Source: Rotaria sordida (Eukaryota). From it: a DNA stretch of 64,000 nucleotides. A program made the translations under genes and the position numbers. Below are positions 219-62,957 of this stretch, one piece after another (position 1 is the first letter of the stretch; each line of letters starts with the position of its first letter). The notes beneath the pieces were generated by a model. That model was not told where the DNA came from. It ran no database searches and worked only from the letters and a program-made list of their open reading frames with translations. The stretch is from NCBI GenBank assembly GCA_905250005.1, contig CAJNOH010000668.1:1-64000 (forward strand), read 5' to 3'.

Positions 219-272
219 GAGGGTATGAGTGTATGAGGGTGATGATGAAAAGAAGACCCACACCCACACCCT
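219..272. repeat. Inverted pair of degenerate TGTGGG / CCCACA telomeric-type repeats. G-block 219-242, C-block 257-271.
   Basis: gagggtatgagtgtatgagggtg...cccacacccacaccc. Confidence 0.75.
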
Positions 273-505
273 TCAATATAAAACTGTTACAAGCGCAAAA
301 TGTAAGAAGAAATCGTTAAATAATACTGGCACTGGATAGTGTGGATATATGCTCGACTTTTTTTTTAAATTAAAATTTACGAAGAAAAAAATATTGAGCG
401 AAATGTAAGAAAAATTGTTGGCCTTTGGACACAGTTATGGATAAAATCAATATCTAATCAACCGGAAAAATGTAAACGATTAACATCATGACCAGAGGAA
501 GGTAA

Positions 506-1267
506 TTAAACGTTTGTGCTTGAATTTGGTGGAATAAGTTCCCATGGATAGAAATCATTGGCTATTTTCACGATTTTCTTGATTTGTTGTCGACTATTAC
601 ATAAATTTTGTTTATTGCAAGTAAAACCAAAATGATTCCAGTCAGATGAAAGTGGTGGATCACCTTGTACAAGTGTGATACGAAAATATTGACGAGGAAA
701 GATTGTCACCGTACTATCATTTCTACATTCTCCTTCGAAGTCAATCTGGTCATTCTCGATTATTTCATATCCATGACATCCATAACCATTTTGACATGTT
801 ACGGGTTGATCCTGATTATCAGAACATTGTTGAACATTGACGACCGTTGGATCGAATATTTCCTCTTCGATTTTGTCTAGTATCAGTTCATTTTGAATTA
901 ATGTTTGTATGGTTAATAGATAATATATTTTTGCACAGTCAAATGAATTCTGACAAGTGTATGTGATGTTGACATCCTTCATTTTTGGTTCATCGAATTT
1001 ATTTTGAACTGCTAGTTCTAGACGATAATTTCCTATCTCATCGGATCCGCCTGTAAGGTTCATATGAATTTCTTTTGTTACATAATTTGTACGAAACACT
1101 ACTTGACAAACATCAGTTTCAACAAGTTGTCCATCGCATCTTGATGGTAATTCTGATGGATTATTAAATGATAGCACAATATCATTACAGTTTGTACACG
1201 CGAGACAGACAACCAAAGAAAGGTTTGCAATAGAATAGAGAAGCGTAAAAGTCGTTTTACCAAACAT
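506..1267 (-). CDS. Cysteine-rich secreted protein. The ORF 506..1405 likely starts at the internal Met (MMFGKTTF...) that begins a signal-peptide-like hydrophobic stretch. ~16 Cys, single exon.
   Basis: Long minus-strand ORF with an N-terminal hydrophobic signal-like segment (LLYSIANLSLVVCLACTNC), many spaced Cys and N-glycosylation-like NxS/T sites. Telomeric inverted pairs flank it at 219-272 and 1463-1507. I do not recognise a family. Confidence 0.45.
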   Translation of the reverse strand: MFGKTTFTLLYSIANLSLVVCLACTNCNDIVLSFNNPSELPSRCDGQLVETDVCQVVFRTNYVTKEIHMNLTGGSDEIGNYRLELAVQNKFDEPKMKDVNITYTCQNSFDCAKIYYLLTIQTLIQNELILDKIEEEIFDPTVVNVQQCSDNQDQPVTCQNGYGCHGYEIIENDQIDFEGECRNDSTVTIFPRQYFRITLVQGDPPLSSDWNHFGFTCNKQNLCNSRQQIKKIVKIANDFYPWELIPPNSSTNV

Positions 1268-1462
1268 CATTATCAATGTAGTACTTACTTCGAATAGAGA
1301 AAAATGAAGAAGAAACGAAGTTGTCTTGTTGCTAGATAAAAGATGTGTGTTATTTGTCATTCTCACCAAAGATATCACCTGTTTTAATTTTATTGCATCG
1401 TTCACATTTACAAAGCACGAATGACGTTATGACATGAGACGCCCAACTGCCTTTGATGGTAT

Positions 1463-1900: not shown

Positions 1901-4900
1901 ATGAAGCAAACTACGATATCTACTCCATTGCTGTCACCATTCAATGGCAAAACGATTGTACTCGAACTTGGTCGTGAAATAGGTTTCAAAGCTAAACAAG
2001 AACTTATAAATTATTTACGAGAACAAAAAGCATATATTTCATATATTCTTACAGCTAGTGTATGTTATTCTTTCATATGCTACGAACACGCTGCTATTGT
2101 TGACTATTTATTTTTTAGACTGATTATGTTTTAATCACGAATAATGTAGATAGCTACAAGACACGTCGTGCGAAACAACTTGGTTTGCCACTAGTTAATG
2201 TTGAATATGTGTATGAATATCGTCGCTTGCCGCCTGGTCAAACATCGATCGATATAAGTAAATTTATCATCAAGTCAATTGAAGATCAAGAAAATTTTAC
2301 ACAGACTGGTACAATATCCATTACAGGTATATGAATGTCAACTTTTTAAAAATCATGTTGGAGATATTTATTCATTAGGATCTCGAACAAATGCAATCAA
2401 AATCAATAAATTTGATTTAACTAAAATCAAAATATGGAATTCAGACGATATTAATTTACCTCGTTTCGATGAGTTAACTCATTGTGAAATTGGAAAATGG
2501 GCCATTTTTAAAGTACAGTTCTATTCTTTTCTAGCTCTTATTTTTTTCTTATACATCTAATGTTCGTAATAGGAAACCAATGATAATTCAAATGTGTACT
2601 TTGTTCTTGAACTTCAAGTCATTCCTGAACAATACTATGATCGAATAACGAGTGATTATCGATTACGATTTCGTTATGAAAAACAAACTATTGTTAACGA
2701 TGGACAACAGCAAAATAAAAAAGTATTGATACAATATGCATTCAGTGATGATCCAAATGAACAGCAACAATTATTTGCCACGTATTATCATCGAGTAGCT
2801 ACAATGTCACGTGTAACACGAATTCGTGAGATGTTACCTGATAAATTAGGATCAAAATTATTATTACGTGTATGTTAAACGAGAAATAGTTTTTCAACTA
2901 AAAATAATTATTTTTAGTCTTTATTTACTCATCGTATCGATACACAAATACTTGATGAGAATGCATGTCAATTAATTGAATCGATTTGGTTAGAATCAAT
3001 TGGTGATTTGAATAAAATTTTGAGCGTACCACCTGAATCAATTACTCTCAAAACAGTATATTTATCCATTTTTCTATATTTAAATTTATTTTATTCCTTA
3101 TCTATTAAATAGATTATCGAAGCTGAAGCTGCACTACTTGAATTGAAAACGACTAATGATCCTCGTGCTGCACTTCGTTTCTATTCACTTATTCCTCATC
3201 GGTCACAATATACAGTTGATCTAATAAAAAATCGTCGAGTATTAACAGAAAAAATTGATTTATGTCAAGTATGTCTATTTTGTTTAATGATTTAATTTAA
3301 TTGTTCGCGTTCGTTCAGATGCTTCGAGACATGCTTACAGTCAATGAACTAACTAATTGGAATGTTAAAGCACCGATTGAAGCGAAATATCGAGCATTGA
3401 AATGTCACATTGAAACTATTGATAATTCAACACCTGAATTTAATAGTATTGCTGAATTGATTCAATCGTCAACAGATAAGTGAGAACAATTGAAGTTTGA
3501 TTTTATAATGATAACTTTGATTTTTTTATTCATTAGTGGTAAACAAATTGTTATTCATCAAATATTCAATGTAACTAAACAAATCGATGCACTTAATTTT
3601 TGCACATCTCTATCAAATCAACGACAATTATTTCATGGATCAAAATATGCTAATTTTCTTGGAATTCTTTCACGGTAAAACATTTATTTCATTTTCTAAA
3701 TAATATTTATAGTACAATTATGTATATTCAGTGGTTTAGCAATGCCAAAAATGGTAGTTGAAGAATTAGGTGTCGTACGTACTGATATTGGTTGTCTTGG
3801 TTATGGACTTTACTTTTCTGATTCTGCTTCTACATCTTTAAAATATACAACAGCAAGTACAACACGACCTGGTAGACGATTGTTATGTATTTGCCAAGTA
3901 GCACTAGGTGAATCAGCCAATTATTATTCATTTGCACCAACTCTCGTCAAACCTCACGATGGTTTTCATAGTACACATGGAGTCAAAAGAACCGAAGAAA
4001 ACAATTCAATGTTTACCGTAGGTACATTATTAGTAAAAAGAAAGTTTTCGAGTGTCCTACGAGTTAAGAAGATGATATAGGAGAAGATTTCGTACAAGTT
4101 GAAGTAAATACGTAATGAAAATTCCTCCCAGTTTGATATATATATAGAATAGATTTGAAATAAAAATTCGACAATTGATCTCGATTTCATAATTTGTTGT
4201 GTAATTATCAAAATAGGATAATGAATATGCAATCTATCAACTTGATCAACAACGTTTACTCTACATTGTGGAAGTTTCATGGGCACCGAACGATACTCTC
4301 AATATCGAATTTGAACGATTGCCAATTATTCATCATCAACAACATGCACTAAAATTAAGTGAACATGGTAATGATAATTAAATAGTTTTTGTTAAAATGA
4401 AATTCAATTAGATTATTCTGTTACATTCTAGTTGAAGTTCCAATGACAATTGAAGATGAAGTCATTGAAATAGCCGAACAAGACTATGGTTTAATAAATC
4501 CATCATCGGGAAAACTTGTACCACTTAAATCATTTCATATTCGTGCTCAAATTGTTGATACTACAGTTGAGGTAAATATATATATCGATCATTTCTCATG
4601 AAAGTCACACTAAAATTTATCATATTTCTTTTTTTAATATGAAAAAAAAAGGTTGTTCTCTATCAAGTCTATCACAATACGAGTTCGATACCAATTGAAG
4701 CTAAATATGTATTTCCTCTTGATGAAAATTCAACTGTATGTGGTTTCGAAGCACATATCAATAATAAAATTATTAAAGGTGTTGTCAAAGAGAAAGAACA
4801 AGCTAAACAAGAATATCGAGAAGCAATCGAAAAAGGACATGGTGCTTATTTGATGCATCAAGAACAAGCTCAAGTATTCAGTGTAGCTGTTGGTAATTTA

Positions 4901-6884
4901 CCAGCAAACAATGAAGTTATTATTAAAATAACTTATGTTGCCGAATTAGAAATTGAAAATGATGAAATTATATTTCGTCTACCAGCTAAAATGGCATCAT
5001 GGCAATCGAAACAAGCAATTGAAAGTAAAGATCAATCAATCGTACGATCGATTGGTATTATTGATGAAAAAGTTGAATTCAGTTTCAAAGCATCAATTCG
5101 AATGCCATATGAAATAATCAAATTATTTTCACCAACACATCGTCTTCGACGAAAATTAACTGATTGTATAGCTATGATTGAACTTATTGATAATGTCTTA
5201 CTTGATCGAGATTTTGTTCTTTCAATAACACTTCGAAGTGCTAATCTACCTCGAATATCAATTGAAACATTATCATTGGATAATGATGACAATGGAACAA
5301 CGATAGCATCGAAAAATGATGATTCTCAAGCATGTATGCTTACATTTTATCCACGATTTGAAACATTAACAAATTCGAATGAACAAATTGAACTTATTTT
5401 TATTATTGATGTATCCAATTCAATGGATGGTAGTTATGTACAACAAGCTAAACAATTAGCTCATTTATTTCTTACGAATATGAAATTCGATGATAGAAAT
5501 ATATATTTTAATATAGTTACTTTTGGATCAGGTATATAAAATGATAATTGATAGAATTATTCTATTATTCAAATTTGAATTATTTAGATAATGATGAATG
5601 TTTTCCGATTTCAACACCAACAACTAAAGAAAATCTTGATAAAGCTAAACACTTTGTTCTGGTTGATATTTTTTTGTTTTTATTACTATTGAAATATATA
5701 TATTTAACTTATTTTAGCATTCACTTATCCATCGTGGTAATACAGATCTATCTGCTGTTCTTCATCGTTATTCACTATTACCAGCATTACCAACATCGAA
5801 ATTTGGCCGTCAATTTATTATTCTCTCTGATGGACATATTCATGATCTTCAATCGATTCTTGTTCTACTCGAACATCAATCAACTATGCGTCGAGATCGT
5901 ATATTTGCATGTTCAATTGGTAATGTTGCTAACAAACATGGTTTGAAACAATTAGTGAATGGAGCAAGTGGTGGTGGTCTAACAACTGTATTCGATTCGA
6001 ACTATCGATCAAAATGGAAAACAAAAGTATTAAATATTCTCGAACAAGTTCGACAACCATGTGTTACAAATATATCAATTAATTGGCATGGTCATGTAGA
6101 TGAACAACAAAAATTTAATATGCAAGCACCGAAAATAATTCGATCATTATTTAATGGAATGCGACTTAGTGTCTATCGATTTATACAAAATTGTCATAAG
6201 GCCACATTAACAGCTACTATCGATGGACAAGAATTTGTTACAACTGTATTTAGTAGTACAATGACAACGACTAAAGGACGTATCCTACATTGTTTAACAG
6301 CTCGAGCGATTATTGATGATTATGATAATGGATTATTACATGTAGACGAGAGCGAAAATGAACTGATGAAAGTTCAATATAAGCAAGATCTTATTGATCT
6401 AAGTATCAAACATTCAGTCGTTAGTGCATACACTAGTTTTGTTGCTATCGAAGAACGTGATGCTAAAACAGATGTAAAAACTTTTCAACCAGGTTAGTAG
6501 AAAGTTAAATAGAATGTAATTAATTGCTGTCAATATTCTACTTATCTTATAGGCGTTCGTCTTCTTGATGTTATGCTCGATCGAAATATTGACTTATTAC
6601 CATACATAGGATGGGACGGTGATGTGTCAAATTTGGATACAATTAAACAGAAATTAATCGATGAACGTATTCCACTCGAAAGTGCATCGATTCAAAGCAA
6701 AAAAGAATCGATAGTCGATATTGAAAAACTTTGTGAAAAAATTTCCTATCGAGCAGGTGGTGATGCGAAATTTGATATGATGATGACTATCATACGTACA
6801 TATCGTTATGCATTGAATGAACATGAAAAAGCAAATGAAATTGAAAATAAAATGCGAAATGGTATGTTATTCAATCATAAATAA
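1901..6884 (+). CDS. PARP4-like: Multi-exon vault poly(ADP-ribose) polymerase (PARP4/vPARP)-like gene, ~18+ short exons. Domain order: BRCT (1901-2329), WGR-like (2382-2876), PARP regulatory helical domain (2918-3480), PARP catalytic (3536-4368), VIT (4431-~4900), vWA (5380-6494), C-terminal exon (6552-6884).
   Basis: Translated exons carry recognisable motifs. BRCT: GKTIVLELG...ITNNVDSYKTRRAKQLGLPLVNVEYV. PARP catalytic: H-G-S (LFHGSKYANFLGILSR), GLAMPK...GYGLYFSDSASTS, LLCICQVALGE, and the catalytic-Glu motif DNEYAIYQ. VIT: LVPLKSFHIRAQIVDTTVEVVLYQVYHN. vWA MIDAS-like: IFIIDVSNSMDG. Exons are joined by gtaagt/gtatgt...ag introns of ~40-120 bp. Exact exon boundaries were not all resolved. 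Confidence 0.8.
3536..4368 (+). CDS. PARP catalytic-domain exons (sub-feature of the PARP4-like gene).
   Basis: Exons encoding SGKQIVIHQIFNVT...LFHGSKYANFLGILSR, GLAMPKMVVEELGVVRTDIGCLGYGLYFSDSASTSLKYT...LLCICQVALGESANYY and DNEYAIYQLDQQRLLYIVEVSW. These match the H-Y-E ADP-ribosyltransferase signature of the PARP family. Confidence 0.8.
4431..6494 (+). CDS. VIT and von Willebrand A domain exons (sub-feature of the PARP4-like gene). Includes ORFs 4850-5539 and 5886-6497.
   Basis: VIT-like segment EVPMTIEDEVIEIAEQDYGLINPSSGKLVPLKSFHIRAQIVDTTVE...VFPLDENSTVCGFEAHINNKIIKGVVKEKEQAKQEYREAIEKGHGAYL. vWA: ELIFIIDVSNSMDG...LSDGHIHD...GASGGGLTT. This is the PARP4-type architecture. Confidence 0.75.
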
Positions 6885-7466
6885 ATGTTTATAGATGTCG
6901 ATTTTGAAAAAATAAATAGATCTTAAGACTGAAATGATTAGTGCAACGACAGAAGAACGACAAACATTACAACAACGATGTCAAACTAATAATTTGATAA
7001 TTATAAGTGATGATGAGTACGTAAAAGAAAAACGAAGAAAATATTGATAAATAAAATTTCATATTTTGTTTTTTTTTTGTTTACAGTGAATCATCAGTTG
7101 ACTTCGATGGTAAGACAAGTGGTAAGTAGAGCTTTCATTATAATGTAGTAACGTTTAAAAAGTATTCCAATATGATAGAACAAATTATTGTTTAGTATGA
7201 ACATTGTATTATTCAATGAGCGATTTGACTTTCATGTTGAATTCAAGAATAAATAGGAGTTCGATTTTTTTTGGATTGAATAAAAGAAGTATCAACCATT
7301 TCCGATAATCGAATGATGTAAGCCTAATTAAGGGAGATAAAGTTCGATTTCTATCATAAAATTTCAACTTTTGGATTCCATGTATAAATAAAGCAAAGAT
7401 GTTACTGTTATTTAAATCATGATGAACACAGGAAAATTATAAAAAATCCATAATATATTTGCAAAA

Positions 7467-7484
7467 CCCACACCCACACCCACA
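7467..7484. repeat. Single C-strand telomeric block (cccacacccacacccaca), intronic/intergenic within the PARP4-like locus.
   Basis: Read directly in the sequence. Confidence 0.8.
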
Positions 7485-7713
7485 TCTTGCAATCACCTTT
7501 TCCAAAGAAATATTGATATTGCATTTTCATAGAACATGCTTGTTTGAAACTCCACTTTAAAGGATTAACAAAAACCCAACGGTTGGAAAAGATGAGACAA
7601 ATAATGTCGTCGGTACGTCAATCCAATGTTCTATGTATCATTGATAATGAAATCGAATATTTATTTTTCAGTTGGGTGAAGCACCAACTGCCGCTGACGT
7701 ACCCTCTACACCG

Positions 7714-7746
7714 TCATCATTATCATCATCATCATCATCATCATTA
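7714..7746. repeat. (TCA)n / (CAT)n microsatellite. Encodes poly-Ser in the exon frame and poly-His in an alternative frame.
   Basis: tcatcattatcatcatcatcatcatcatcattat read directly in the sequence. Confidence 0.9.
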
Positions 7747-8095
7747 TTTTCACTGGAACTTGCACAAGAGATGATAAGTAAAGGTAACGTATGAATTGCT
7801 ACACATAACAAAATTTAAGAACGTGAGCATATATATAAAACGCGAATCATTATTCATAACCACGTTGATGCCGAAAATCTGGTTTCTTTAAGATTTTTTT
7901 TTAATCTAAATTAAAAGATTTTTGAAACAATTAAACAGATTGAACTGACATTTCTATAAAAATTCATTATGAAAGTCACGATTAAAAAAAGTCCTAAATT
8001 ATATAACAATCAGTATTCATTTAGGCCCATCAGTTCTATTCAACTGTTTAGAAATTGTGAAAATATCTTATATTATTTTTCTAAAAAAATTATTT

Positions 8096-9031
8096 TTTTT
8101 GTATCATTAAGAATAGTGTCTCGAAAAAAAACAATCTAGAGGGTACTTAATTATAGAATCTTTAATATTTATGACTGAATCTCAATATTTTGATTTCATT
8201 CAAAAACTTACGTATATATAAGAGTTTAATCTCGTAGTAGAGACGCAAATACTTTTGACACATTTTGTTTTTCAAAAAGTCTATAGATTATTCTGATTTA
8301 AATATTCTGCATTTTTCTTTAAGGGAAAAAAATGACTGCACCAGGAACGCGTTCATTGGCAGCACCGGGAACGTGTTCATTGGCAGCACTATCAGATTCC
8401 GATGATGAAGGCGATGATATGGGTTTCGGCTGTTTCGATGATATACCAACAGCTTCCTACTCGGCACCTCGTAAGTTATGCAAATGTTATAAAATGCGAT
8501 CTAAAAGGAATGTTGAAGTATATATATAGTAGACATTTGGACTCACTCCTCTCCTATTGTATCTCGAGAGCATTAAGTAAAAGAAGGCCGAAGATATGTA
8601 TCTCGGGATATATATTGAATTAAATATTCAAGTTCATATCCGTATATAAAAATATTATCTCAAAAAAACAACAATCTAGAGAGTACTTAATTATACAATA
8701 TTTAATGTCAACGAGTGAACCTAAATATGTTGATTTCACTCAGAAACTTGAAACTATGCTTTGATATTTAATTTGGAAATAAGAGATCTGAATCCTGTTG
8801 TAAGGAAATAAATATTCTTGTTATACTTTGTTTTTCAAAAAGAAAAAGAAATCTATAGATTATTTAATTTTACTTCTGGTTTCAATATTTTGTATTTTTC
8901 TTTAAGGAAAGATGCGTGCACTGGAAAAGGAGTCATTGAGATTACAGCCAGAATCCGACGATGACGATGATGATAATATGTTTGACATATTCGGTGATTA
9001 TGTACCAGCAGCTTCCTGCCCAGCATCTGGT
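8096..9031 (+). repeat. Tandem duplication of an intron-plus-exon unit, ~590 bp x 2. Both copies keep an acidic exon with a gtaagt/gtgagt donor. Copy 1 also contains an internal 24-bp tandem duplication (GCACCAGGAACGCGTTCATTGGCA x2).
   Basis: 8096-8330 aligns with 8690-8912 (ctcgaaaaaaaacaatctagagggtacttaattata... vs ctcaaaaaaacaacaatctagagagtacttaattata...; ...ttttgtttttcaaaaag...tctatagattat...ttctttaag in both). The exons 8332-8472 and 8913-9031 that follow are paralogous (acidic D/E run, F-G/D, PAASxxAP). Confidence 0.8.
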
Positions 9032-12000: not shown

Positions 12001-13440
12001 TGTCATTAGATTTCTGATGAATACAATGTGGATTCATTTAGATTTGGAAACTTCTGCTGCTCCTCCTCCACCACCCCCTCCACCACCTCCTCCTCTACCA
12101 ACAACAACAGCAACAACATCATCATTTTTACTTGATAATTTCGACCAGGCTTTCGTCGGTGGTAGCAGCGTTTCAAATCAAAGTAAGACTGAAATTTTCT
12201 TTTCTTTGTATCCATATTATCCGTTGTTTGGATTAAATTTTCTCGTAGTATTGCTTTTATATATTATCTTGTTCGAACGAAAAACACAGTTGAACGTACC
12301 AAAGAAAAATAGTGTTACAAACATGTTTGCTTGTCGTGAGGATCTCGAAGTAACATTAAGTACCATAGGTTCATTTGCATGTCACCTACGTTGTTAGCCG
12401 AATATTGCAATCAAATGTTTCACTTCAAAATACAAAACACGTACATAGTGCATGTTCGATTAATTATTTATGAGATTTTGTTTATTTTTATTTATTTATT
12501 TAAAACTTCCGATATGAGCGTATGTGTAATCGTTAGTCAAATAATTAGTTGAATAGTAACCATAAAAATCAAAATCTTTGAGTATAAATGTACTTTCGAG
12601 GCTAATCTGCAGCAAGTTTGCCATTTGAACAGTCAATATCATCCAAACATAAAAAGCTATAACACGAATGATTTTTCATCAACGTCCTTTACGTTTTCAC
12701 ATGAGAAGAATTAGCAATGATGAAAACTTTTGGCGATACTATCATTAATTCATTGCCAGTTATGTACGTTAGACATATTACTTTCTAATTTGATGTTCAT
12801 TTTAGGTAGCGAATCAGCAGATCGACTCAAACGGGACGAACTCTTGGACGATATTTCAAGTTGCATTGCTCCTTCTTCGCTTTCTATAGCATCACCCAAA
12901 AAGTCATATCCAACAGTATCGCTAAAAATGAAAGCGGCAACAGATGAACCTCGTAGTAGTCGTGGTGGTTGTATGGGATCTTCAACAGCAGCAACACAGT
13001 CAGCGATAAGCACTAGTAAGTTACACTCACATGAACTTCTTGTTTATCTCGATTAATAAAACGTGAATATATGTACAATTTCAGAAGCTTCGCCACGTGG
13101 TCGTACATATGGTAAGCTATTTGAAATAACTCACTCATATATTCTACTTTTTCTTCTACAGATGAAGATAAATTGCTTGAAACGAGGTGTAGGAACAAGA
13201 TAAAAGCAAAGTTTCAAGACTTCGAAGTATGTACATTAACATGTAATTTTTTGTTCGGGAATTTCATTCATTTCTAGAAGCAAGATGATGATGATAAAAA
13301 GGCAAGTTTCTTATCTAGCGAGACAACACTGAGCTCTATAGTTGGTAAAAGAAAAAATGTCGAAACGTAAGTTTTAACATATATCAAGTAGATGAACTAC
13401 GATTAATTATTAATCATCTAAATTTAGCCTTCAATCAAAA

Positions 13441-41822: not shown

Positions 41823-41889
41823 TAACTATATGCAGGTCCCGCGCGAAGGTCCCAGGATTGGAAGGGGTGCAATGGGTCCTGAGGCAGCT

Positions 41890-49720: not shown

Positions 49721-50159
49721 ATGATTAAAATGTCCAAATATGAGCTCGTCTTAATTATTTGGGATTTTCTTCAGCGAAAGCCAACTTTCAAACGCGTAAT
49801 GTAGTATTTTTCCTATGTAATTCGATGAGTTCTATTCACATAAAAAAAAAGACAACAAAAATAAATTACTGCTTTAATTTTGAATTAGCTCTACCTAACA
49901 AGGTTAAAGATATAACTGTAAAGGTATAAGGATATAGCCATAAGAATATAAGTATACGGGTATAGTCATACGGGCATAGGTATGAGAATACAGTCTTACA
50001 AATACAGCTGTAGGAATTTAGTTATACGGTATAGGCGTAGGGATTTAGACAGTGAGGTGCCACCATTCCGATCTCATTTGTAGGGTATAGCCATTACAAT
50101 GTGGCAACAACATAGGTGGATTTTGTAAGAATTGCTGTGAATTTTAATCGAGTAATATA

Positions 50160-53422: not shown

Positions 53423-53539
53423 TAAGCTTTTATGCATCGATACGGAAAGAAACACGATGAACTAAAATCAGATTGGTTATATTCATTCACGATTTTGTTT
53501 TGTTGAAATAAATCATAGCAACAGCAATTTCCTACACTC

Positions 53540-53630
53540 GGGGTGTGAGTGTGAGGATAGTTCTTCTATTCATCCACACTCGCGCTCGCTTCAACCCGCA
53601 CTCGAAAAACCTACACCCACACACCCACAC
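53540..53630. repeat. Inverted telomeric-repeat pair 3' of the ART-TPR gene: gggtgtgagtgtgagg ... catccacactcgcgctcgcttcaacccgcactcg...cctacacccacacacccacac.
   Basis: Read directly in the sequence. Confidence 0.8.
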
Positions 53631-55274
53631 TTTTTTCGAGACATTGAATAACTTGGCTGATCGCTGCCTAGAGTAATGTAGTAAACTTAACAGATTTACA
53701 ATCAAAATACCAAAGTAACGATGAAATACTAAAAATTTAGTATTGTGGTAATTTGTCTCGTCCTCTGCCTTTCTAACAAAACAAAACTTAGCAGCATAAT
53801 TAAATTTTGCGACAAAAAGTGAGGCCGTACAAACTCCGTATGATCATTCAGTCGCCACAGCAGGGAAAGGCTACGAATAAACAGCATGATATGGATTTGT
53901 CGTTACCGACTTTGAAGAGAAAAATGCCCAAGGAGACCAACCCCTTGCATTGGCTACAAGTTGATGAAATATCTTCGTAAGTACGGCCCCACTGTCGTTT
54001 CTTTAGAAGTTATATTTATACAAAAAAAAATTGAAGTGGTGCAATAACCTTAGAAAGTGATTCATCATCAGCCAGCCTCTTGTTAACTGTGCTATTTAAC
54101 ATGGTTTAACTCACTCAAATGAGCTATTCGCAATCAAAGTTTTAGAACAAAAATTAGCTGCTAGTATTCTTCTTGTTCTATGTAATATTTTACTCAAGAT
54201 TGTTCTTGTAAACAAAGTCTTTTTCTTGTTATCAAGCACAATTTTCAAACAGCAGTGGATGTTTTCGTCGTTCAATAACATCGCCATTGTTCAGACACTA
54301 GTCTGTATTGTGTAGTTATTTAGGCCTTTTAAGCTTCTGGAGTTATTTTTTCTTTCATTCAGGCTACTTTCACTTCAGGCATCCTGTATTCACTCTACTA
54401 ACAAGGGAATCTGTTTCAGACAAAATTTTTGTGTGTGAAGTCAATATTTCCCTGTTACGTTGGAAGAAGGACTTAGTCTAAACTTGCGATTGTTTAGATT
54501 CGAGCTACGAGACGTGTTTCTTAATTCTCATTTTCAGATTCTGTCTATACATAGCAGTGTTTCGCAATTTTTTTTCCTAAAACCATCGACAAAGCCATAG
54601 CATCTTTAACAAAATCTGTTGATGCAGCGTCATGTCACCTTAGTATTGATTTCCTGTTGTTTTGTTTTGCATGTTCGAAAAAAATCACCAACTGAGACTC
54701 AACGAGGTGCACCATTCTTCATTTGCTTATCGATTTTTTCTGTGCAAATGGAAAGAGCTTCTCAAGTGTACCCTGTGCAAATATATCAACTTTTCACGAG
54801 AAAGAACAAGAAAAGTATGTGGGTCGATCAAATTTTTGTTGCTCGTTCCCGATGACTGATGCGGCCCAAACAACGCATTTTATTTTGTCAGAAAATGAGG
54901 GGAGCAGGCATAGCGTTTACTTCGACTTTTGAAAATGGTGAAAGAGCTGAGATAAATAACATTGATTCAAAGCCACCACGACTCAAACTCCTATTTCGTC
55001 GAAAAAATTCATACGTCTGCCAGAGACAGAACATAGACATTGAACTTCAACGCACAGACTTTCATGAATCATCCTGCAGATTGATAAAGCTTCTTTTCAA
55101 TCAATTTGTGCATTAGCTACGAAAAACCTCAAGAACTAGCCCATCTAGTTCAATAAACTGCAGATCACGCTGTGAACACAAAGGTGACAATGCGATCGAA
55201 TGCTACTTGCGAAGAGTGGTAATGAGTCTCCGCTTTGCTATCAGCGGCTAGAAGACAAATATTGTTCATGTCAC

Positions 55275-55490
55275 CGTGTGCGTGTGGGTGTCGTGTTGAT
55301 GAGGAGTAGGTGTGAGGTGGATTTGAGGTGTGGGGTGTAGATGTGGGTGCGAGGTATGTGGGCGTGTGGGTGTGGAACCGGTGTCAGCGTAGGTCTTGTT
55401 TGGACCTGCATCCTACACCCGCACCCCACCCGACACCCACACTTACACCCACACCACGCCCACACCCCACACCCACACCCTTCTGTATAA
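55275..55490. repeat. Telomeric-repeat palindrome of ~215 bp. G-strand arm ~105 bp, 32-bp centre, C-strand arm ~78 bp.
   Basis: gtgtgcgtgtgggtgtcgtgttgatgaggagtaggtgtgaggtggatttgaggtgtggggtgtagatgtgggtgcgaggtatgtgggcgtgtgggtgtgg | aaccggtgtcagcgtaggtcttgtttggacctgcat | cctacacccgcaccccacccgacacccacacttacacccacaccacgcccacaccccacacccacaccc. The ORFs 55271-55465 and 55328-55510 are artefacts. Confidence 0.9.
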
Positions 55491-55740
55491 GTTTTGATTC
55501 TGCCATATAATAAGAAATTCTAAACATACCTGATGAGTCCCTACAGCAACAATGAAACATTATATGATGCTTTGAATCTATCTAATACGAGAAATACACC
55601 CGCACCTCAAATTTTATTTTGACGATAGAGATATGTTTATTGATAAATATTCAATAGAAAATATTTACCAAAATTACAGAAAAAAAATTTTTAAACAAAA
55701 CCACCAATCTACTTTATTTTGTGAATGATCGTCGTTGCAT

Positions 55741-56580
55741 TCATCCTCTTTCCTTTTTCACTAGTTTTTTCAAAAACCAATCCCACCGGAGTGTGAGTTC
55801 CTCCATTATTGAATCAAAATCAACTTCATTTCCTTTCCCTTCACGTATTCTCGTGCGAACCAACAACCATTCACCATCTTCGATCTCTGACAGATCATCT
55901 TCATTATGAATTGTTACATTTCCTTTCCCTGCTTTCGCACTTTTGAGTGTTCTTATAATTGCTTTAGTCGTTTTCAATGTTATCATATTGATATAAACAT
56001 TATGCTGTTTTTCTAAAGAAGCGATATAACCATCTCTACCGATAAATCGACTACGTTGCACTTTTTTTGCAGCTTCGTTTAGTGAATTCAACTTTGGCTT
56101 TCTTGCAATTTTATATGGTAAATAAAGAAATCTTCCATTTTTAAGTGCTTCGCGTGAGTTACTCCTTCTGTTTTTTCCTAGCATAGATTCTCGAACATCC
56201 ATAATTTGCTTTTCTTCAAAATCAGATGAATCATTATCAAGTTTTATAGGTTTATCAACAGTTGATGTTGATAATACGCATCTATGTGAAATCCAATTCT
56301 CTTTTATAAATTTTTCTAACCTGTACAATGATAGAAAAAGTTTGAAATCACTTGTTTTATCTCGATCTATTTTATCAGTAAGAATTTTCAATTTCATTAC
56401 TTTATTTTTTCGATCAATAGAAACACTTGTTGGTGTTTCCTGGTCAATAATGTTGCATGTACAACATTGGCGAGGTATATTTCGTAACTTACATACAGGT
56501 ATACAATTTTGTTGTCGAATTTCATTGACAACAGCATGAAATAAGGAACGATACCTTGGATTGTGTACAAGACAAGCCAT
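55741..56580 (-). CDS. Hypothetical basic protein (280 aa from ATG MACLVHNP...) with an N-terminal Cys cluster (CLVHNPRYRSLFHAVVNEIRQQNCIPVCKLRNIPRQCCTC) and a K/R-rich middle. Single exon.
   Basis: Long minus ORF (55741-56616 from an alternative start; first ATG at 56580). A TATATATATA box lies at 56631-56640 (minus-strand upstream). The gene is exactly bracketed by a telomeric-repeat palindrome (55275-55490) and an inverted telomeric pair (56873-56933). I do not recognise a family. Confidence 0.5.
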   Translation of the reverse strand: MACLVHNPRYRSLFHAVVNEIRQQNCIPVCKLRNIPRQCCTCNIIDQETPTSVSIDRKNKVMKLKILTDKIDRDKTSDFKLFLSLYRLEKFIKENWISHRCVLSTSTVDKPIKLDNDSSDFEEKQIMDVRESMLGKNRRSNSREALKNGRFLYLPYKIARKPKLNSLNEAAKKVQRSRFIGRDGYIASLEKQHNVYINMITLKTTKAIIRTLKSAKAGKGNVTIHNEDDLSEIEDGEWLLVRTRIREGKGNEVDFDSIMEELTLRWDWFLKKLVKKERG

Positions 56581-56630
56581 TATGTAAGGGAGAAAACGAA
56601 TGCATGAAAAAAACAAAAAGCACTATTTTA

Positions 56631-56640
56631 TATATATATA
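56631..56640 (-). promoter_or_regulatory. TATA-box-like element ~50 nt upstream of the ATG of the 55741-56580 gene.
   Basis: tatatatata read directly in the sequence. Position relative to the first ATG (56580) is consistent with a core promoter. Confidence 0.3.
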
Positions 56641-56872
56641 GGAAGAAGGATTGTGCAATAACAAAGAATAATTCAACCATCATGTGAGATGCAAAATGAA
56701 AGAACAAACATTAGTCATGATGATTGTTAACAAGATAAGGGAAAATAATCTTTTTCCAAGTTGATCATTATTAGTTGATTTTCTAATTATTCATAATACG
56801 AGAATATTTCAAGTCATCGAAGATAAATAGAAAATGTGTATATGAAAATTGAGAAAACTTGAAAAACGAATG

Positions 56873-56933
56873 ATGGGTGTGGGTGAGTGTTCACTAAGAG
56901 ACAATAACATCCACACCGACACCCACACCCGCA
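56873..56933. repeat. Inverted telomeric-repeat pair: atgggtgtgggtgagtgt ... catccacaccgacacccacacccgcac.
   Basis: Read directly in the sequence. Confidence 0.85.
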
Positions 56934-57408
56934 CTCTCAGTGAAAAAATTAAAAGTCATATTTTATTTTCACAACTGAATCAGTGTCTATTTCGTCATTA
57001 CTCTCATGTGAACATGATATGTCTCATTGTTGCATTTATTCTTTGCTGCAAGTTATCTTTTTTTTTTGTTGCCGTTGTTGACTCATATGCACACTTCTAT
57101 ACCTTTCTTCAATCATTATTTTCGATCAAACATTCGTATTCATAGTATCACAACGGTGCTCCTACCAGCATTATTCTTTCATTCTGCACTGAAAATAAAA
57201 GTACTGTCTCTCGAGAGCTTGTATATATTTTTTTTTTAATCAAAGAGCAAATATAATTTCGGCCTCAGATAACGTTAAGGGAAAGAGAGAACAAAACGCA
57301 TAAAGTGAGTAAGCATTTTCGTGCATACTAATAGCTCGTTTTTCTGTATCACTATTGACATAAACATCGACATCAGGTGCCTAACTTAGACAGTTTTCTT
57401 AATACTTT

Positions 57409-58449
57409 TTGGTTCTTCGTTCAGGTAAATTGACAGATATGATTATGATTATCGGATTTGTTATTTTTCTTTATATCACTTATCGATTGTATCGACACTT
57501 TTTTCCTGAAGCTAATGTTAATCCTCATAGCAAATATGTTCTCATCAGTGGATGTGATAGCGACTTCGGTAATGTCCTAGCTATCGAACTTGACAAACAA
57601 GATTTCAATGTCTTTGCTGGTGTCTAGAGCGCGGATAGTAAAACTTTACTGGCTAATCAACTTTCTTCAAGAGCAATTGTCTTTTTACTTGATATTACTC
57701 GACAACAAGACATCGATTCGGCTTACAAAATGATCAAAGAAAAGACGAATACTCTGCATGCTTTAGTCAACAATGCAGGTATTTCTACTGCTGGTCACAT
57801 TGACTGGATCACCTTAGAATCAATGCGTCAGGTGATGGATATCAATTTTTTCGGACACGTAGCCATGACTAAAACATTTCTACCTCTGCTAATTAGTAAA
57901 CGAGACTCGCGCGTAGTGAACATTTGTTCGGTGGCCGGCTTCACATCTCCACCATCTGGTTCAGCCTATTGTGCTTCTAAATACGCTCTGGAATCGTTCT
58001 CGGATTGTTTTCGTTGTGAAATGCTTGCCTGGAGGTTGCATGTAAGCATTATCGAACCAGGCATCATGCAAACGTCAATTATTCAAAAGCATGCACAAGC
58101 CGTACGTGAGGTAGGAATCCAATTATCGGCTGCTGTTCGAGAATGATGGGGCGAGGAATTTTTGAAGTATCATTTTGAAAGTTTAAAAACCAATATTTTG
58201 GTTCGGTGGGCTGAAGATCCAATTAAAGTAATAAATGCACTTCAACATGCAATAAAAAGCAAGTCACCATGTATTCGTTATCGACCTGGTTCGCAGTCTA
58301 AATTTGTTTACTTTCCTTTATCAATAATACCTGCCTGTTTAATCGATTTTTATTATACAAAAACACGTTCCGTACCCGTTCTGCCGCAGGCGTTACTAAG
58401 CAACTCAAGCCATAAATTCAATTTGAACACAATTATTAGTGAATGTTAG
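57409..58449 (+). pseudogene. SDR9C-type microsomal short-chain dehydrogenase (retinol / 17-beta-hydroxysteroid / 3-hydroxybutyrate dehydrogenase-like) with an N-terminal membrane anchor. The otherwise single, continuous reading frame is interrupted by two in-frame stops (TAG 57625-57627, TGA 58144-58146).
   Basis: IIGFVIFLYITYRLYRHFF (anchor). YVLISGCDSDFGNVLAIELDKQDFNVFAGV*SADSKTLLANQLSSRAIVFLLDITRQQDIDSAYKMIKEKTNTLHALVNNAGIS matches the TGCDSGFG...VxAGCL...LDVT...GLWGLVNNAGI pattern of the SDR9C family. NICSVAGFTSPPSGSAYCASKYALESFSDCFRCEM (S...YxxxK active site). Then ...SAAVRE*WGEEFLKYHFESLKTNILVRWAEDPIKVINALQHAIKSKSPCIRYRPGSQSKFVYFPLSIIPACLIDFY (the family C-terminal region). All three ORF pieces (57409, 57730, 58162) are in the same frame. 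Confidence 0.7.
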
Positions 58450-59616: not shown

Positions 59617-60452
59617 CTACAAGATGACGGATGTGGTATATGATAAACTATAGATAAGTTTCGTTAGTTGAAAAGCAAAGTAATATTCGAGGGAACTTAA
59701 GTATTGAACAGACAAGAAGCCCAATATATAAACTGTAGCTAATGGTGTAGAAAGTAAAATATGGGAAATCACTTGGACAAATAGCATGCGAGCAAGTTGA
59801 TGTTCAGTACGACGGAATCGTGTAGATGTAATAGGAACAACACGAACTGCCTTTGCATTGTATATGGTCAGGATACCGAAGATTAGCATTAGAAATGGAG
59901 GAATAAAGCTTAAGAGAACTGCTTGAATAATCGGATATATACGCCTATAAACTGTTGTTGGTAAAATGCAGCATAGAATCGCTTGACCTGGTTGTATATT
60001 GAGCAGTACCAGAGAACTAATGAAGAAAAGAGCGATAAAGGTGAAGACAAATAAAATAGACCATCGAGCAACAGACAAATTGCTAAGATGTCGTCGTTGA
60101 AAATTTGATGAACTAACACAATATCGATCGATCAAAGCTAGTACAATTAAATACGGTGACACTACGAGAGATACTGTTGAATATAGAGAATAACTTTACA
60201 CCATAATTGAGAATTGCTAGTTGGATCTATTTGATAGCTAAGGGATAAAAGATTAAACATGAGAAGAAAGATTGAGAAGAACAAATTGTTACTAGCAAGT
60301 GCGAGAAAATAATGAGAACATGGATGATTGTACAATACAGATTTTCTAAGCACAATTATATTGAGCAGATTTCCGATGATTCCGATCACCATACTGGGAT
60401 GTACGGTTATTCGTGTGAGTAGAGCAATGAGTTGAACATATGAATTCATCAT
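59617..60452 (-). pseudogene. Rhodopsin-like GPCR split into two overlapping ORFs by a 1-nt frameshift at ~60162, within TM3 just before the DRY motif. Possible pseudogene or sequencing error.
   Basis: ORF 60162-60452: MMNSYVQLIALLTRITVHPSMVIGIIGNLLNIIVLRKS...WCKVILYIQQYLS*. ORF 59617-60162: (V)SPYLIVLALIDRYCVSS...AVRVVPITSTRFRRTEHQLARMLFVQVISHILLSTPLATVY... The conserved GNxxN in TM1, C in ECL1, DRY after TM3 and a basic ICL3 are all present. The two frames abut at 60162. Confidence 0.6.
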
Positions 60453-62905
60453 CAGATTTTTGTGTCTATTGAGTTGATCTGAAGAATATGAAACGTTTCT
60501 TACTTTAAAATATTTCTTAGTTTCATAAGTTATTTATTATTGAATCTGATCATAAAACCAACTTACAGATCTTTTTGCTTAGGAGAAAAAATTATTTTCA
60601 TTCAGTCATTGAAAACGATAGGATTACATGACTTTCACAAAAATCTTACAATTTCTGTCTCATATGGTAACAAGAAAATAAAGCTTCAAGACTAGAGTCT
60701 CGTATAAAACCAAAAACAAAACATTCTTCTAGTTCCGATGAAACCATATCCTACTGTGCAATTGTTGTTTACACTAGAGTATGTTTTATCATGTATTTTT
60801 TAATGGAATAGTCCTTGAATATTCAAAACAAAAACCAGATTTAGTTATGGGCGATTTCAAAAGTCTTCTCCCAAGTTTCGCTGACTAAATATTTTTCTCA
60901 TATAAAGAAACAATTATATAATGCTACATTTTTTTTTATTAAACTCAAACAACTATTCTCTTTGTTCCTGAAGAGTTCTATTCAAGCAAGTCAGAAAATA
61001 ATTTGTTACTATAAATTTCTTTTTACTTTCTGAAGGAGAATTACTTCTTAAGATTTCTCATATTTTTTTCTTAATTTATAAGGTAGATTTTTATCTCATG
61101 TACAGTGCTGGTCAATGAAATTTTCTGCCGTTGTATTTTTTTGTTTTTTATTACCATAGTTCTTTTATTTATTAACCTATTGTATATAGAAAGAAAACTC
61201 GAAACGCATTGCATTTGTTGATGTATTTATGTTGAAAATTAAATGCAATTAAAAGTGTAGAGACTATATTAGAAAGAAAAAATGACATTTTCTTTTCTAT
61301 AGGGTGTTCATAATGTTTTGACATTTTTTTTTATTTCGCATATATCTCAGCTTGAGAGAACGATGAGTTGTTGTATTTCTTCTTAAAAGATGAGCTGTTG
61401 TGAAAGTTCTACAAAAGTTGTATATTCCAAGTCTTACAACGAATCAGAAAAGTATTCGAAACATTTCCAGTAGAATAGGTAATGACATTGTTATACAAGT
61501 TGTTTATTTTGAATATGAGAAGAAAACATTAGAGCAGATAAAAAGAATTTTTTTGGATGAAAATTCAAGAGTATATTGTTTACCTGCGTCACGATATATG
61601 CGAAATAGAAAATGTCATAACATTCTGGGCATCCTGTAGAAAAAAAAATGTGTCATTTTTTTCTAATATATTTTTTACACTTCTAACTACATTTGATATT
61701 TAACATAAATACACCAAAAGATGTAGCACGTAGAAGGCTTTCTTTCTATATATATAGTACGTTAATCAACAAAAGAACAGTAGTAATAAGAAACAAAAAT
61801 AAAATAAAGAGGGACAATTTAATTAGCCCGTACTGTAGATTTAATCATCAGTTTTATCTTAAATTTTCATCAGCTAAATTTACTGACATATGTAGGACTG
61901 AGAATGCTTAGGGTGCACTGACGTAAAAAAAACTCTTGCATGAGTGTTTCATTCACCATTATTATTATAAAAAGAAAAATGTGCACAGATAACGAATGAA
62001 ATATTATATTAATTACAATTGCTCATAAAAATCCATGGAGAACATATTCACATACATTGAGTTTTATTGAAATTTACATTTTTGAAAAACTTTGTTTCAT
62101 AAAGTTTTGTTTTTTCATCACATGTTTATAAATATCACTGGTCAAGAAATAGAGATGTCTCAAAAATCCAGCGCAACAATTCATGTATTTCAATTTTATC
62201 CTTTCATTTGAGCTATAGTTTCAGCTAGGGAATTGAAACTTACAATATTATACATCTCGGCTAGACATCTAGGTAATAAAAACTTCAGACTCCTTCGTTG
62301 AGTAAAATGCTGATTCGTCCAATATCATTTATAATGAAGGATTATTTCTATGATGTTGAATTACTGTGTTTGCAACATGCTGTATGTTGCATATATTCCA
62401 GCAATGATGAATGATAAAAAACTTGATTTTTTTTTCAAAAGATGTGCCATGAAAAGTTTTACAAAAAATGCCGGATCAAATTTCAACTTACATGTTTTGA
62501 TGATTTTTCCTATAGCCAACATAAAGCTTCTAAATATTATTGCTGCTTACCATCGTATTTATAGTAATAACAATTTTCGGAAGACTTTTTTCATTTTGCA
62601 TACATCTCATCTTTAGAAGACAACAAAATCTTAATCTTTTTTTTTTCAACAAATGCGTCATCGAAAGCTCTACAAAAACTGAATGAAGAAACCTCTATTG
62701 CCTTACTCGGATGATTTTTTTCTAGATAGTCAGAAGTGAAGATTTAGGTTATGTTGTTATTGGATGTTCAAAAATGTTTGCAACATATCTTATTTTGCAA
62801 ATATCTGTGCAAAGACAAATGATAAAGTTTTGATTTTTTTTTCTTCAAAATATAAAGCATAAAAAGTTCTACAAAACTTGTAAGAACACATACTTATCGA
62901 CTTAG

Positions 62906-62957
62906 GGCGGGGATGTGGATGATCACAAGATTGATGTCCACATCCATACCCACACAC
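62906..62957. repeat. Inverted telomeric-repeat pair: gggcggggatgtggatg ... tccacatccatacccacacac.
   Basis: Read directly in the sequence. Confidence 0.75.

Follow-up and report, generated by a model that had tools for sequence, protein, structure and literature searches.

Head-to-head islands of the telomeric repeat in the bdelloid rotifer Rotaria sordida as probable joints between repeat-bearing DNA ends

Introduction

The stretch of the Rotaria sordida genome analysed here ("the window"; contig CAJNOH010000668.1, positions 1 to 64,000) raises the question of how the telomeric repeat of a bdelloid rotifer came to lie between genes, time and again and in one particular arrangement. The bdelloid telomeric repeat is TGTGGG (PMC7943196, PMC8494291). 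Thirteen islands in the window consist of a degenerate (TGTGGG)n block (G arm), a spacer of 0-31 bp and a degenerate (CCCACA)n block (C arm), both arms being composed of units of the organism's own telomeric repeat. A description of such a paired, inverted arrangement in bdelloids was not found in the literature searched. An initial annotation of the window had offered two origins for the arrangement, namely the end-to-end joining of telomere-capped fragments and the tandem insertion of elements that end in inverted telomeric repeats. The analysis covered a pooled sample of 232.5 kb of non-redundant bdelloid DNA from six species, with 120 non-bdelloid loci (1.07 Mb), each containing (TGTGGG)3, and 120 metagenome loci as controls. 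The source data are draft assemblies built on short reads.

Results

Islands in the window

The twelve islands listed in the initial annotation were all recovered, each being G-rich, then interrupted by a short spacer and then C-rich on the + strand, and the segments between them read 5'-C-block...G-block-3' as described (Table 1). The statement that every island is a pair applies to the thirteen islands with two arms, but not to the lone (CCCACA)3 block, which had not been listed. The region formerly given as one island (48252-48614) is present but compound: a G block, a C block and a directly abutting G block are followed, after approximately 117 bp of unique DNA, by a second G-to-C pair.

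Table 1. Telomeric-repeat islands, selected genes and segments in the window. Arm coordinates refer to the + strand.
Feature	Position	G arm	Spacer (bp)	C arm	Remarks
Island 1	219-273	219-247	8	256-273	
Segment, islands 1-2					1.19 kb; one Cys-rich gene, 506-1405, minus strand
Island 2	1462-1510	1462-1477	9	1487-1510	
Lone C block	7462-7487				Perfect (CCCACA)3 without G partner; one-sided exception
Island 3	15196-15253	15196-15224	10	15235-15253	
Island 4	22261-22317	22261-22279	16	22296-22317	
Island 5	37181-37224	37181-37197	13	37211-37224	C arm short
FAD-dependent halogenase-like gene	39100-40773				Plus strand; island 6 downstream of gene
Island 6	41757-41823	41757-41780	24	41805-41823	
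Island 7	42884-42919	42884-42895	0	42896-42919	Weak, degenerate; junction TGTGGGGGTGT/ACACCCTCC...
Island 8 (compound)	48252-48427	48252-48319	8	48328-48403	
Island 8, third block	48402-48427	48402-48427			Abuts C arm directly; sole C-to-G junction found
Island 9	48543-48616	48543-48572	13	48586-48616	
ART-TPR gene	51137-53422				Plus strand; stop codon 116 bp before start of island 10
Island 10	53538-53632	53538-53556	16	53573-53632	C arm degenerate
Island 11	55273-55482	55273-55377	31	55409-55482	Largest, 210 bp; arms of 105 and 74 nt
Segment, islands 11-12					1.39 kb; one gene, 55741-56580, minus strand
Island 12	56870-56938	56870-56890	15	56906-56938	
Island 13	62904-62957	62904-62922	11	62934-62957	

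Orientation and chance

Shuffling the window with a first-order Markov model yielded a mean of 3 blocks and 0 pairs; the paired-island pattern is real and far beyond chance. With a strict threshold, the window alone holds 10 G-to-C pairs versus 1 C-to-G junction. In the six bdelloid species, 33 G-to-C pairs with spacers of 6-57 bp were counted against a single C-to-G junction (p = 4e-9), so that the strong G-then-C bias noticed earlier is upheld. Neither control was biased, with 4 G-to-C versus 2 C-to-G in the non-bdelloid loci and 12 versus 7 in the metagenome loci, where only non-ascertained pairs were considered. The ratio of pairs to credible lone blocks is about 33 to 10, which argues for a coupled origin of the two sides rather than for independent rare events. 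The polarity is not explicable by hairpin formation, since both orders form hairpins equally well. The only C-to-G junction (48402/48403) has a spacer of zero, as expected if repeats were added directly to a fresh break next to a C arm already in place. Plain one-sided interstitial telomeric sequences (ITSs) of the vertebrate type were rejected as a description of the islands, most arrays being two-sided pairs and one-sided blocks (such as 7462-7487) a minority.

Reliability of the assemblies

It had been considered earlier that the junctions are artefacts, and a mis-joining of contig ends with telomeric repeats via low-complexity sequence might be suspected in short-read drafts, in which reads might not easily span the largest islands (>150 bp). 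This is extremely improbable. Most islands are 41-91 bp long and therefore shorter than a single sequencing read, with unique spacers and flanks. Moreover, base-for-base identical islands recur in independent assemblies from different isolates (L004/L005/L006/L007/L008, L009/L010, L002/L003 and L135/L136), and the paired architecture is present in at least four Rotaria species as well as on short environmental contigs (L153, L154, L161, L163, L221 and L250).

Arms, joints and spacers

Partner arms are independent tracts, neither fold-back nor mirror copies of each other, their similarity being 0.555 compared to 0.579 for non-partner arms (p = 0.40). This includes island 11, previously described as a 215-bp palindrome (55275-55490): it is no sequence palindrome, and its arms are not mirror images and no more alike than non-partner arms. 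Arm lengths span 12 to 243 nt and are correlated within an island (rho 0.50, p = 0.011), which fits a shared age and also fits a single-step origin. The outer arm halves contain fewer mismatches per nt than the inner, joint-side halves (0.171 versus 0.202, p = 0.009); the outer, first-added halves are the cleaner ones, and decay is heavier at the joint side. Substitutions in the arms are mainly G>A (173 of 334). Where the arms meet unique DNA on the outside, the junctions vary, many of them beginning in the GGGTGTG register.

The initial annotation had suggested a check on whether spacers share sequence. One duplicated pair in L009 excepted, no shared spacer or core sequence beyond chance was found (mean pairwise score 6.32 versus a background of 6.27), and the spacer-to-spacer comparison revealed no common telomerase-RNA-derived fragment either. 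At the two L009 junctions (10979 and 15033), an island core of approximately 50 nt is near-identical, while the flanks are unrelated, which indicates that islands can also spread by copying or conversion. The spacers of the pooled pairs are longer than simple end joining would be expected to leave; the proposed, though unproven, explanation is that they combine filler with inner repeats that have decayed.

Transposon hallmarks

Target-site duplications (TSDs) were not found, since no direct repeats abut the islands and flank scores are at noise level; inverted flanks around the islands and conserved terminal or subterminal sequence at the island edges were not found either. A Pfam scan of 30 window ORFs of at least 90 aa identified no domain of a transposase, an integrase or a reverse transcriptase, and an Rfam scan of the whole window at the gathering threshold gave 0 matches, the hammerhead ribozyme included. 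An ORF with a hAT dimerisation domain adjoins an island in L004; nothing ties this ORF to the islands.

Two candidates were rejected on these grounds. For DNA transposons with terminal inverted repeats (TIRs), MITEs or foldback elements, TSDs are missing, the termini are heterogeneous, the arms unmirrored and no core is shared except in the L009 pair. For additions of the Athena/Terminon type, no reverse transcriptase domain (Pfam, ORFs of at least 90 aa) and no hammerhead are present and the repeats are opposed. The pattern is not a product of Athena-type healing, in agreement with the initial view that internal telomere healing with distal addition would give another orientation.

It is unlikely that the island itself is the unit, be it a hairpin-forming, MITE- or foldback-like insertion or an element under selection as a regulator, insulator or terminator, in that case composed of putative telomere-protein binding sites and placed between genes. 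The fairly uniform size of the islands, their intergenic position near gene ends, the imperfect stems of 10-13 bp into which they can fold (z -1.3 to -3.4), the core duplicated at two sites and the C arms frequently terminating in CCACACCCT, which we take to resemble a CACCC-box, would suit such a unit. However, a common core or spacer and TSDs are missing, the range of arm lengths is wide and a hairpin function leaves the absence of C-to-G pairs unexplained. Furthermore, islands are found irrespective of whether the neighbouring genes are convergent, divergent or in tandem, their positions are not conserved between orthologous genes, and gene-dense core loci are without them.

Segments, compartment and homology breaks

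The inter-island segments are 0.1-15 kb long, with joints every 2-5 kb in the gene-bearing region. They do not carry solely foreign genes: multi-exon metazoan-type genes (PARP4-like, Hsp70-like and GPCRs) are present too, as is a paralog relocated from the island-free ancestral locus of a native bdelloid gene. In A. vaga, the 20.8 kb of the ancestral syntenic locus of the 55741-56580 gene family are free of blocks, and in A. steineri this locus has no more than one decayed island; the dispersed Rotaria paralogs lie amid islands. The islands are restricted to one genome compartment; core syntenic loci are without them.

Islands lie close to homology breakpoints: of 13 ends of homology between paralogous or orthologous loci, 6 are situated within 150 bp of a block, versus 1.55 expected (p about 0.002), a proximity confounded by the fact that both fall in short intergenic DNA. 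In L258, homology stops about 10-16 bp short of an island and gives way to unrelated sequence. The collections searched contained no allelic or closely related haplotype of the window, and an empty-site allele was not recovered. L001, the closest paralog of the 55741-56580 gene (85% nt identity), has matching flanks without islands, and islands at orthologous genes of other Rotaria species are found at different distances from the gene. The islands therefore look like lineage-specific junctions and not like inherited cassette ends, and the presence or absence of whole capped cassettes as units, raised earlier, is not supported by these comparisons.

That the segments are mobile cassettes bounded by inverted telomere-like repeats at their termini has little likelihood as an explanation. 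Such cassettes would be mobilised by a transposase or a site-specific recombinase, in the manner of ciliate telomere-bearing elements or integron cassettes, and inserted side by side. They would accord with a unit of homology between loci that comprises a single gene and a few hundred bp of flank (window 55614-56809 versus L001, window 38333-40792 versus L257, and a block of 2.6 kb in L257 and L258), with gene neighbours that are wholly different between congeneric species, with the island core common to the two L009 junctions and with imperfect-palindrome junctions loosely reminiscent of attC sites. The tandem insertion put forward in the initial annotation is disfavoured by the missing TSDs, conserved ends and core, by the unmirrored arms of variable length and by the lack of transposase, integrase and reverse transcriptase domains in the ORFs searched. 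The island-free paralog and the varying island-to-gene distances also stand against cassettes. Moreover, nearly all blocks lie in G-to-C pairs with spacers of at most 57 bp, so that each cassette would need exact side-by-side insertion. In the ciliate transposons TBE1 and Tec, the ends read 5'-C-rich telomeric repeat...G-rich repeat-3' inside the chromosome. These elements have defined inverted terminal repeats, TSDs and a transposase of their own, hallmarks which are absent from the bdelloid islands in the window.

Discussion

Telomere-to-telomere joining of ends, the first of the two origins initially offered, is the best supported one: each island is probably the joint of two DNA ends, both of which bore short de novo telomeric tracts. 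According to this model, each broken DNA end would gain a short telomeric repeat tract on its 3' end, added either by telomerase, the role of which is assumed here, or by another 3'-end-templated process, and two ends capped in this way would then be joined end to end in a small neotelomere-to-neotelomere fusion. Since repeats go only onto 3' ends and 3' ends face into the break, the product would read unique DNA-(TGTGGG)n-filler-(CCCACA)n-unique DNA, an order whose reverse could not arise from the joining of two repeat-capped ends. The joined ends may have come from a single break or from different capped fragments. After joining, the tracts would decay via G:C to A:T transitions, and islands would now and then recombine or convert with one another. 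The stretches between islands would represent the DNA from one joint to the next, in a compartment prone to rearrangement and probably similar to subtelomeres, which would house native genes, relocated paralogs and foreign-type genes.

The identical orientation rule is predicted by classical fusion of chromosome or chromatid ends with breakage-fusion-bridge (BFB) cycles, or by stepwise accretion at a terminus, both of which are improbable here. Long islands would be in line with such events (L009 48-375 with arms of 129 and 189 nt, L257 1322-1587 with a G arm of 243 nt, and island 11), and interstitial telomeric repeats in an HGT hotspot of A. vaga have been interpreted as the possible trace of an ancient fusion (PMC8494291). 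However, one flank of an island is not the inverted copy of the other, as it would be in a BFB palindrome, and the segments are a mere 0.1-15 kb long. Along the window, no monotonic trend in decay or length was found (rho 0.38, p = 0.19), and ordered terminal accretion is therefore unsupported.

If joints between neotelomeres are the correct explanation, the islands would be a readable record of how bdelloids rebuild and reshuffle shattered chromosomes; the head-to-head form, which is rare elsewhere, is dominant here and tiles a germline region. In vertebrates, telomerase inserts ITSs at sites of double-strand break repair (PMC8537989, PMC7215372). Head-to-head TERC-ITSs are rare among them (3 of 41); to explain these cases, it was proposed that a second telomerase extended the opposite side of the break (PMC8537989). 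Geometry and proposed mechanism of these head-to-head vertebrate ITSs, described by the Nergadze/Giulotto group, are the same as those of the bdelloid islands; vertebrate ITSs, however, are mostly one-sided, whereas the bdelloid islands are mostly two-sided. The "fusions of neotelomeres" in cancer genomes (PMC11293586) are alike in combining de novo addition at breaks with subsequent fusion, giving inverted repeats at non-telomeric positions. These fusions are somatic and occur in unstable tumours, whereas the bdelloid joints are germline-fixed in several species, decayed and located between intact genes. The human 2q13 fusion ITS also consists of degenerate arrays placed head-to-head (G-strand, then C-strand) with independent arms, but stems from a single whole-chromosome fusion with subtelomeric duplicons on both sides, in contrast to the dozens of joints and short segments in bdelloids.

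Among bdelloids, subtelomeres contain short telomeric stretches close to foreign genes, as well as Athena/Terminon elements that telomeric repeats truncate at the 5' side (PMC2861651, PMC6431247). That compartment resembles the one described here in the repeat unit, in being a gene-poor, HGT-rich and dynamic region and in having host genes between repeat-marked units. Athena-type addition gives repeats of the same orientation on both sides of the element, with a hammerhead ribozyme next to (ACACCC)n, whereas those of the window islands form opposed pairs. In Adineta vaga, fragments of chromosomes are maintained over generations, and a few deletion breakpoints bear telomeric repeats; the BIHER model proposes heritable fragments which are stabilised by de novo telomeres, later seen as "scars" (PMC13564844). 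BIHER favours faithful homology-based restoration and does not describe two-sided head-to-head joints (PMC13564844); relative to this model, the islands would represent the result of end joining that became fixed in the course of evolution.

Polarity of the telomeric islands

Twelve islands had been reported for the window in the initial annotation, and all of them are present with the polarity described there, a G-rich (TGTGGG)n block followed by a C-rich (CCCACA)n block. A search that tolerated repeat decay, accepting 12-mers with at most 2 mismatches from any phase of the repeat, gave 13 G-then-C islands in the window, with G arms of 12–105 nt, C arms of 14–76 nt and spacers of 0–31 bp; the segments between them measure 139 bp to 14.9 kb. 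After Markov shuffling, the window yielded about 3 blocks and 0 pairs. The further claim that every island is a pair applies to these 13, but not to a perfect (CCCACA)3 block at 7462–7487, which is located inside or just past the multi-exon PARP4-like gene and has no G partner; one-sided telomeric insertions such as this one are common in vertebrates. The reported island at 48252–48614 exists, but is compound and includes the sole C-then-G junction (48402/48403, zero spacer). The supposed 215-bp palindrome at 55275–55490 consists of two unlike arms, as judged from a comparison of arm similarity.

The polarity was tested in a pooled, non-redundant set of 232.5 kb, comprising the window and loci of R. 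sordida, Rotaria sp. Silwood1, Silwood2, R. socialis, Adineta vaga and A. steineri. In this set, 33 G-then-C pairs (spacers of 6–57 bp) were counted against one C-then-G junction (binomial p = 4e-9), and the remaining C-then-G gaps, all of at least 125 bp, are the segments themselves. Random capture of telomeric DNA does not fit this distribution, since it predicts both block orders. Among 120 non-bdelloid contigs containing (TGTGGG)3 (1.07 Mb), 4 G-then-C and 2 C-then-G pairs were found, while 120 metagenome contigs, which had been chosen by one G-then-C pair, contained 12 G-then-C and 7 C-then-G pairs besides the one used for selection. Both controls are unbiased, so the TGTGGG repeat does not in general show this polarity. 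The metagenome scan for a stringent G-then-C pair returned mostly non-bdelloid contigs (GC 0.22–0.69) and served as a negative control and as a source of a few environmental bdelloid islands. One metagenome contig of non-bdelloid appearance was also picked up by the scan (L244, 5725–11238), but its head-to-head array is a microsatellite-like GT/CA sequence (GT-rich over about 1.1 kb, then CA-rich over about 4.4 kb); it is not telomeric and was set aside.

Mis-assembly is very unlikely as the source of the islands. The majority of them are shorter than one sequencing read, their spacers and flanks are unique, the same islands are found in identical form in independent assemblies from different isolates, and the structure also occurs in short low-GC environmental contigs.

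Anatomy of the islands

Partner arms are not mirror copies of each other, and an origin by fold-back or hairpin copying was rejected for this reason. Their similarity was 0.555, compared to 0.579 against arms of other islands (p = 0.40). Arm lengths within an island correlate (rho 0.50, p = 0.011). Since the two flanks of an island are not inverted copies, BFB palindromes were rejected; no target-site duplications were found in the flanks. As single strands, the islands form modest imperfect hairpins only.

At 31 islands (window and comparison loci L002–L250), the outer junctions are heterogeneous and show no conservation on the side of the unique DNA. Many telomeric tracts have the GGGTGTG register at their start, with A or T as the base immediately before it (AAGGGTGTGGG, TTGAGGGTGTGGG; C-side form CCACACCCT(T/C)), and the DNA preceding these starts is A/T-rich. 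This register could reflect alignment of telomerase on non-telomeric 3' ends. The outer halves of the arms are closer to the repeat than the inner ones (0.171 versus 0.202 mismatches per nt, p = 0.009), and over half of all substitutions (173/334) are G>A. No gradient of island decay was found along the window, and thus none of terminal accretion.

The spacers are A/T-rich. A shared purine-rich core (GAAGAC, ACCGAC), either read through from telomerase RNA or belonging to an element, was considered, and k-mer enrichment was borderline; it was rejected, as direct alignment of spacers revealed no excess similarity over random intergenic windows. The enriched inner motifs (GTGTGGAT, GTGTGAAT) are decayed repeat variants. 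The single exception to unshared cores is a pair of islands located 4 kb apart in comparison locus L009 (10979–11045 and 15033–15097), in which about 50 nt (inner G arm, spacer and start of the C arm) are nearly identical, without any relationship between their outer arms or between their flanks. Copying or gene conversion from one to the other is a likely cause, and islands can thus be copied or converted between sites.

Gene content of the window

The window is assigned to R. sordida, a philodinid bdelloid, since its FAD-dependent, halogenase-like ORF is 100% identical to a protein of this species, a truncated gene model on a 77-kb contig; exact searches with window proteins had given no hits. 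Genes were placed with Pfam. No reverse transcriptase or transposase domain was detected among the 30 scanned ORFs of at least 90 aa, and no Rfam family, hammerhead ribozyme included, matched the window. Athena-type retroelement addition does not fit the islands, as it gives repeats in the same orientation beside a hammerhead (PMC6431247).

Genes called in the window, with coordinates, strand and evidence
Gene	Position	Strand	Evidence
Cys-rich gene	506–1405	minus	Pfam scan
PARP4-like, multi-exon (domains PARP, VIT and VWA)	about 2279–9600	plus	Pfam
Hsp70-like gene	about 10296–13749	plus	Pfam
Rhodopsin-type GPCR (1/2)	24336–25286	plus	Pfam
FAD-dependent, halogenase-like ORF	39100–40773	plus	Pfam
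NRPS-like adenylation-thiolation-reductase gene	44325–47927	plus	Pfam
ART-TPR gene	51137–53422	plus	Pfam
Bdelloid family gene without Pfam domain	55741–56580	minus	
Short-chain dehydrogenase	57730–58449	plus	Pfam
Rhodopsin-type GPCR (2/2)	59617–60452	minus	Pfam

The FAD halogenase-like and NRPS-like genes (39100–47927) lie 3.5 kb apart with two islands between them. Both belong to a type of biosynthetic gene that bdelloids are reported to have acquired horizontally, and the FAD family has more than 90 homologs in these animals. A GC-rich patch at 15617–15989 (54–68% GC versus about 33% window-wide) is the remnant of a short-chain dehydrogenase (Pfam adh_short_C2, profile positions 150–214), whose relatives share 52% identity at best; it looks like decayed foreign DNA. 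It was rejected as a fragment cut at an island: the island at 15196–15253 is about 360 bp away, and the patch is a pseudogene with an internal deletion and a frameshift.

Several repeats were also observed. A tandem array at 27145–30282 (93-bp unit, 33.8 copies, 76% identity) has a strong excess of C over G (GC skew as low as -0.49) and coincides with several mechanical ORFs; it could be either a satellite or a gene with repetitive coding sequence. A foldback-like element (48933–49884) with inverted repeats at 48933–49057 and 49754–49884 (76%) and a central self-complementary stretch (49420–49758, 78%) is located immediately to the right of the compound island 48252–48616. Two 250-bp inverted repeats of 75% identity (61098–61346 and 61593–61840, about 250 bp between them) may delimit a small DNA transposon.

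Paralogs and homology breakpoints

The gene at 55741–56580 belongs to a bdelloid family whose ancestral locus shows synteny between A. vaga, A. steineri and R. socialis, its neighbors being conserved in Adineta and R. socialis alike. In Rotaria species, the family has many single-gene paralogs at dispersed positions. No block was found in 20.8 kb of the A. vaga core locus (CP075492.1, 7.84 Mb), and the A. steineri core locus contains at most one decayed island; the surroundings of the dispersed Rotaria paralogs are rich in islands. In A. steineri, about 5 kb (8514–13553 of the locus) separate the 130-aa gene from XPO7, compared to about 400 bp in A. vaga. This extra DNA includes one decayed G-then-C island (11472–11540), and no repeat blocks were recognizable at its borders. 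The R. socialis locus carries a lone C block (11017–11033) just 3' of the family gene, where homology with both Adineta loci is already over and the downstream neighbor is different.

The window copy aligns with its closest paralog, at locus L001, over 55614–56809 (85%), which is nearly the whole inter-island segment. At L001, no islands are present at the flanks matching this segment, and the proposed movement of whole capped cassettes as units is not shown by these data. Readings of the islands as a mobile-cassette system or as a selected element are considered unlikely, having failed each defining test that was run. Among putative orthologs of three Rotaria species, the common sequence comprises the gene and a few hundred bp, and the neighboring genes are entirely different.

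An R. sordida paralog of the FAD gene (L257) and its counterpart in Silwood1 (L258) lie in loci with six and three G-then-C pairs, respectively, and 0 C-then-G pairs in either. Their homology extends over 2.6 kb and ends approximately 10–16 bp ahead of an island in L258 and 150 bp ahead of a different island in L257, followed by unrelated sequence. Overall, homology ended within 150 bp of a block in 6 of 13 cases versus 1.55 expected (p ~ 0.002), a comparison confounded by the occurrence of both in short intergenic DNA. The breakpoint between loci L004 and L006 of the same species, beyond which the upstream sequence differs, is not at an island.

Proposed origin of the islands

We favor, with moderate confidence, the reading that an island is the joint of two DNA ends, each of which received a short telomeric tract before joining. 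Telomeric repeats can be added to 3' ends only, and at a break the 3' ends face into the break. Repeat addition to both ends followed by joining would for this reason give a G block and then a C block, and could not produce the reverse order. The zero-spacer C-then-G case would require a second break beside an existing C arm and direct addition of repeats. With two-ended extension, the polarity, the independence of the arms, the heterogeneity of the outer junctions and the messier inner ends are accounted for, as are the missing transposon hallmarks, the zero-spacer C-then-G junction and the link to homology breakpoints. Pairs outnumber credible lone blocks by about 33 to 10, and two-sided addition is thus coupled and the rule.

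Differing ortholog neighborhoods and relocated paralogs argue that non-adjacent ends were often joined. An island may be either the rejoined sides of a single break or the joint of separate capped fragments, including foreign DNA. The initial interpretation is partly supported: the telomere-to-telomere joining of ends is retained as the likeliest origin, but not the transfer of whole cassettes as units. A more far-reaching version, which we consider unlikely, is that gene-sized, telomere-capped linear fragments are heritable intermediates in bdelloids, fused cap to cap, with islands recombining later. Such fragments could be native, duplicated or foreign, and holocentric chromosomes would enable their persistence. 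Cap-to-cap fusion would then assemble fast-changing compartments rich in horizontally transferred genes, the quasi-palindromic islands would serve as recombination sites shuffling single-gene segments, and the islands would be a fossil record of horizontal gene acquisition and at the same time belong to its machinery.

Significance and comparison with known systems

It has long been an open question by what means bdelloids rebuild shattered chromosomes and acquire foreign genes. If the islands are joints of ends provided with telomeric repeats, each of them is a dated, base-resolution record of past breakage and joining, and this would be an animal germline with routine two-sided telomere addition at breaks. 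Genome scans could then tell where breaks are repaired by joining rather than by homology, how frequently single genes change their place, whether joints are entry points of foreign DNA, and whether the neotelomere-stabilized fragments proposed for A. vaga leave an island signature. The high interest of the islands lies in this prospect of reading bdelloid chromosome repair and gene capture from genome sequence.

No description of paired opposed repeats in bdelloids was found in the literature searched; the key papers of the Arkhipova laboratory lie outside this search and may mention them. The islands are head-to-head interstitial telomeric joints, a known type, with unusual regularity. In vertebrates, telomerase inserts short interstitial repeats at sites of break repair, and rare head-to-head cases have been attributed to the action of a second enzyme on the opposite side (PMC8537989). 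Fusions of neotelomeres were observed in cancer genomes (PMC11293586). In A. vaga, a 2026 study found that chromosome fragments persist across generations and that telomeric repeats are present at some deletion breakpoints, for which transient neotelomeres leaving scars were proposed (PMC13564844); persisting fragments and transient neotelomeres are the premise required by the reading of islands as end joints. The bdelloid islands differ from all these precedents in scale, with joints every 2–5 kb in gene-bearing germline DNA of several species, and in that two-sided telomere addition, a rarity at vertebrate breaks, is here the rule.
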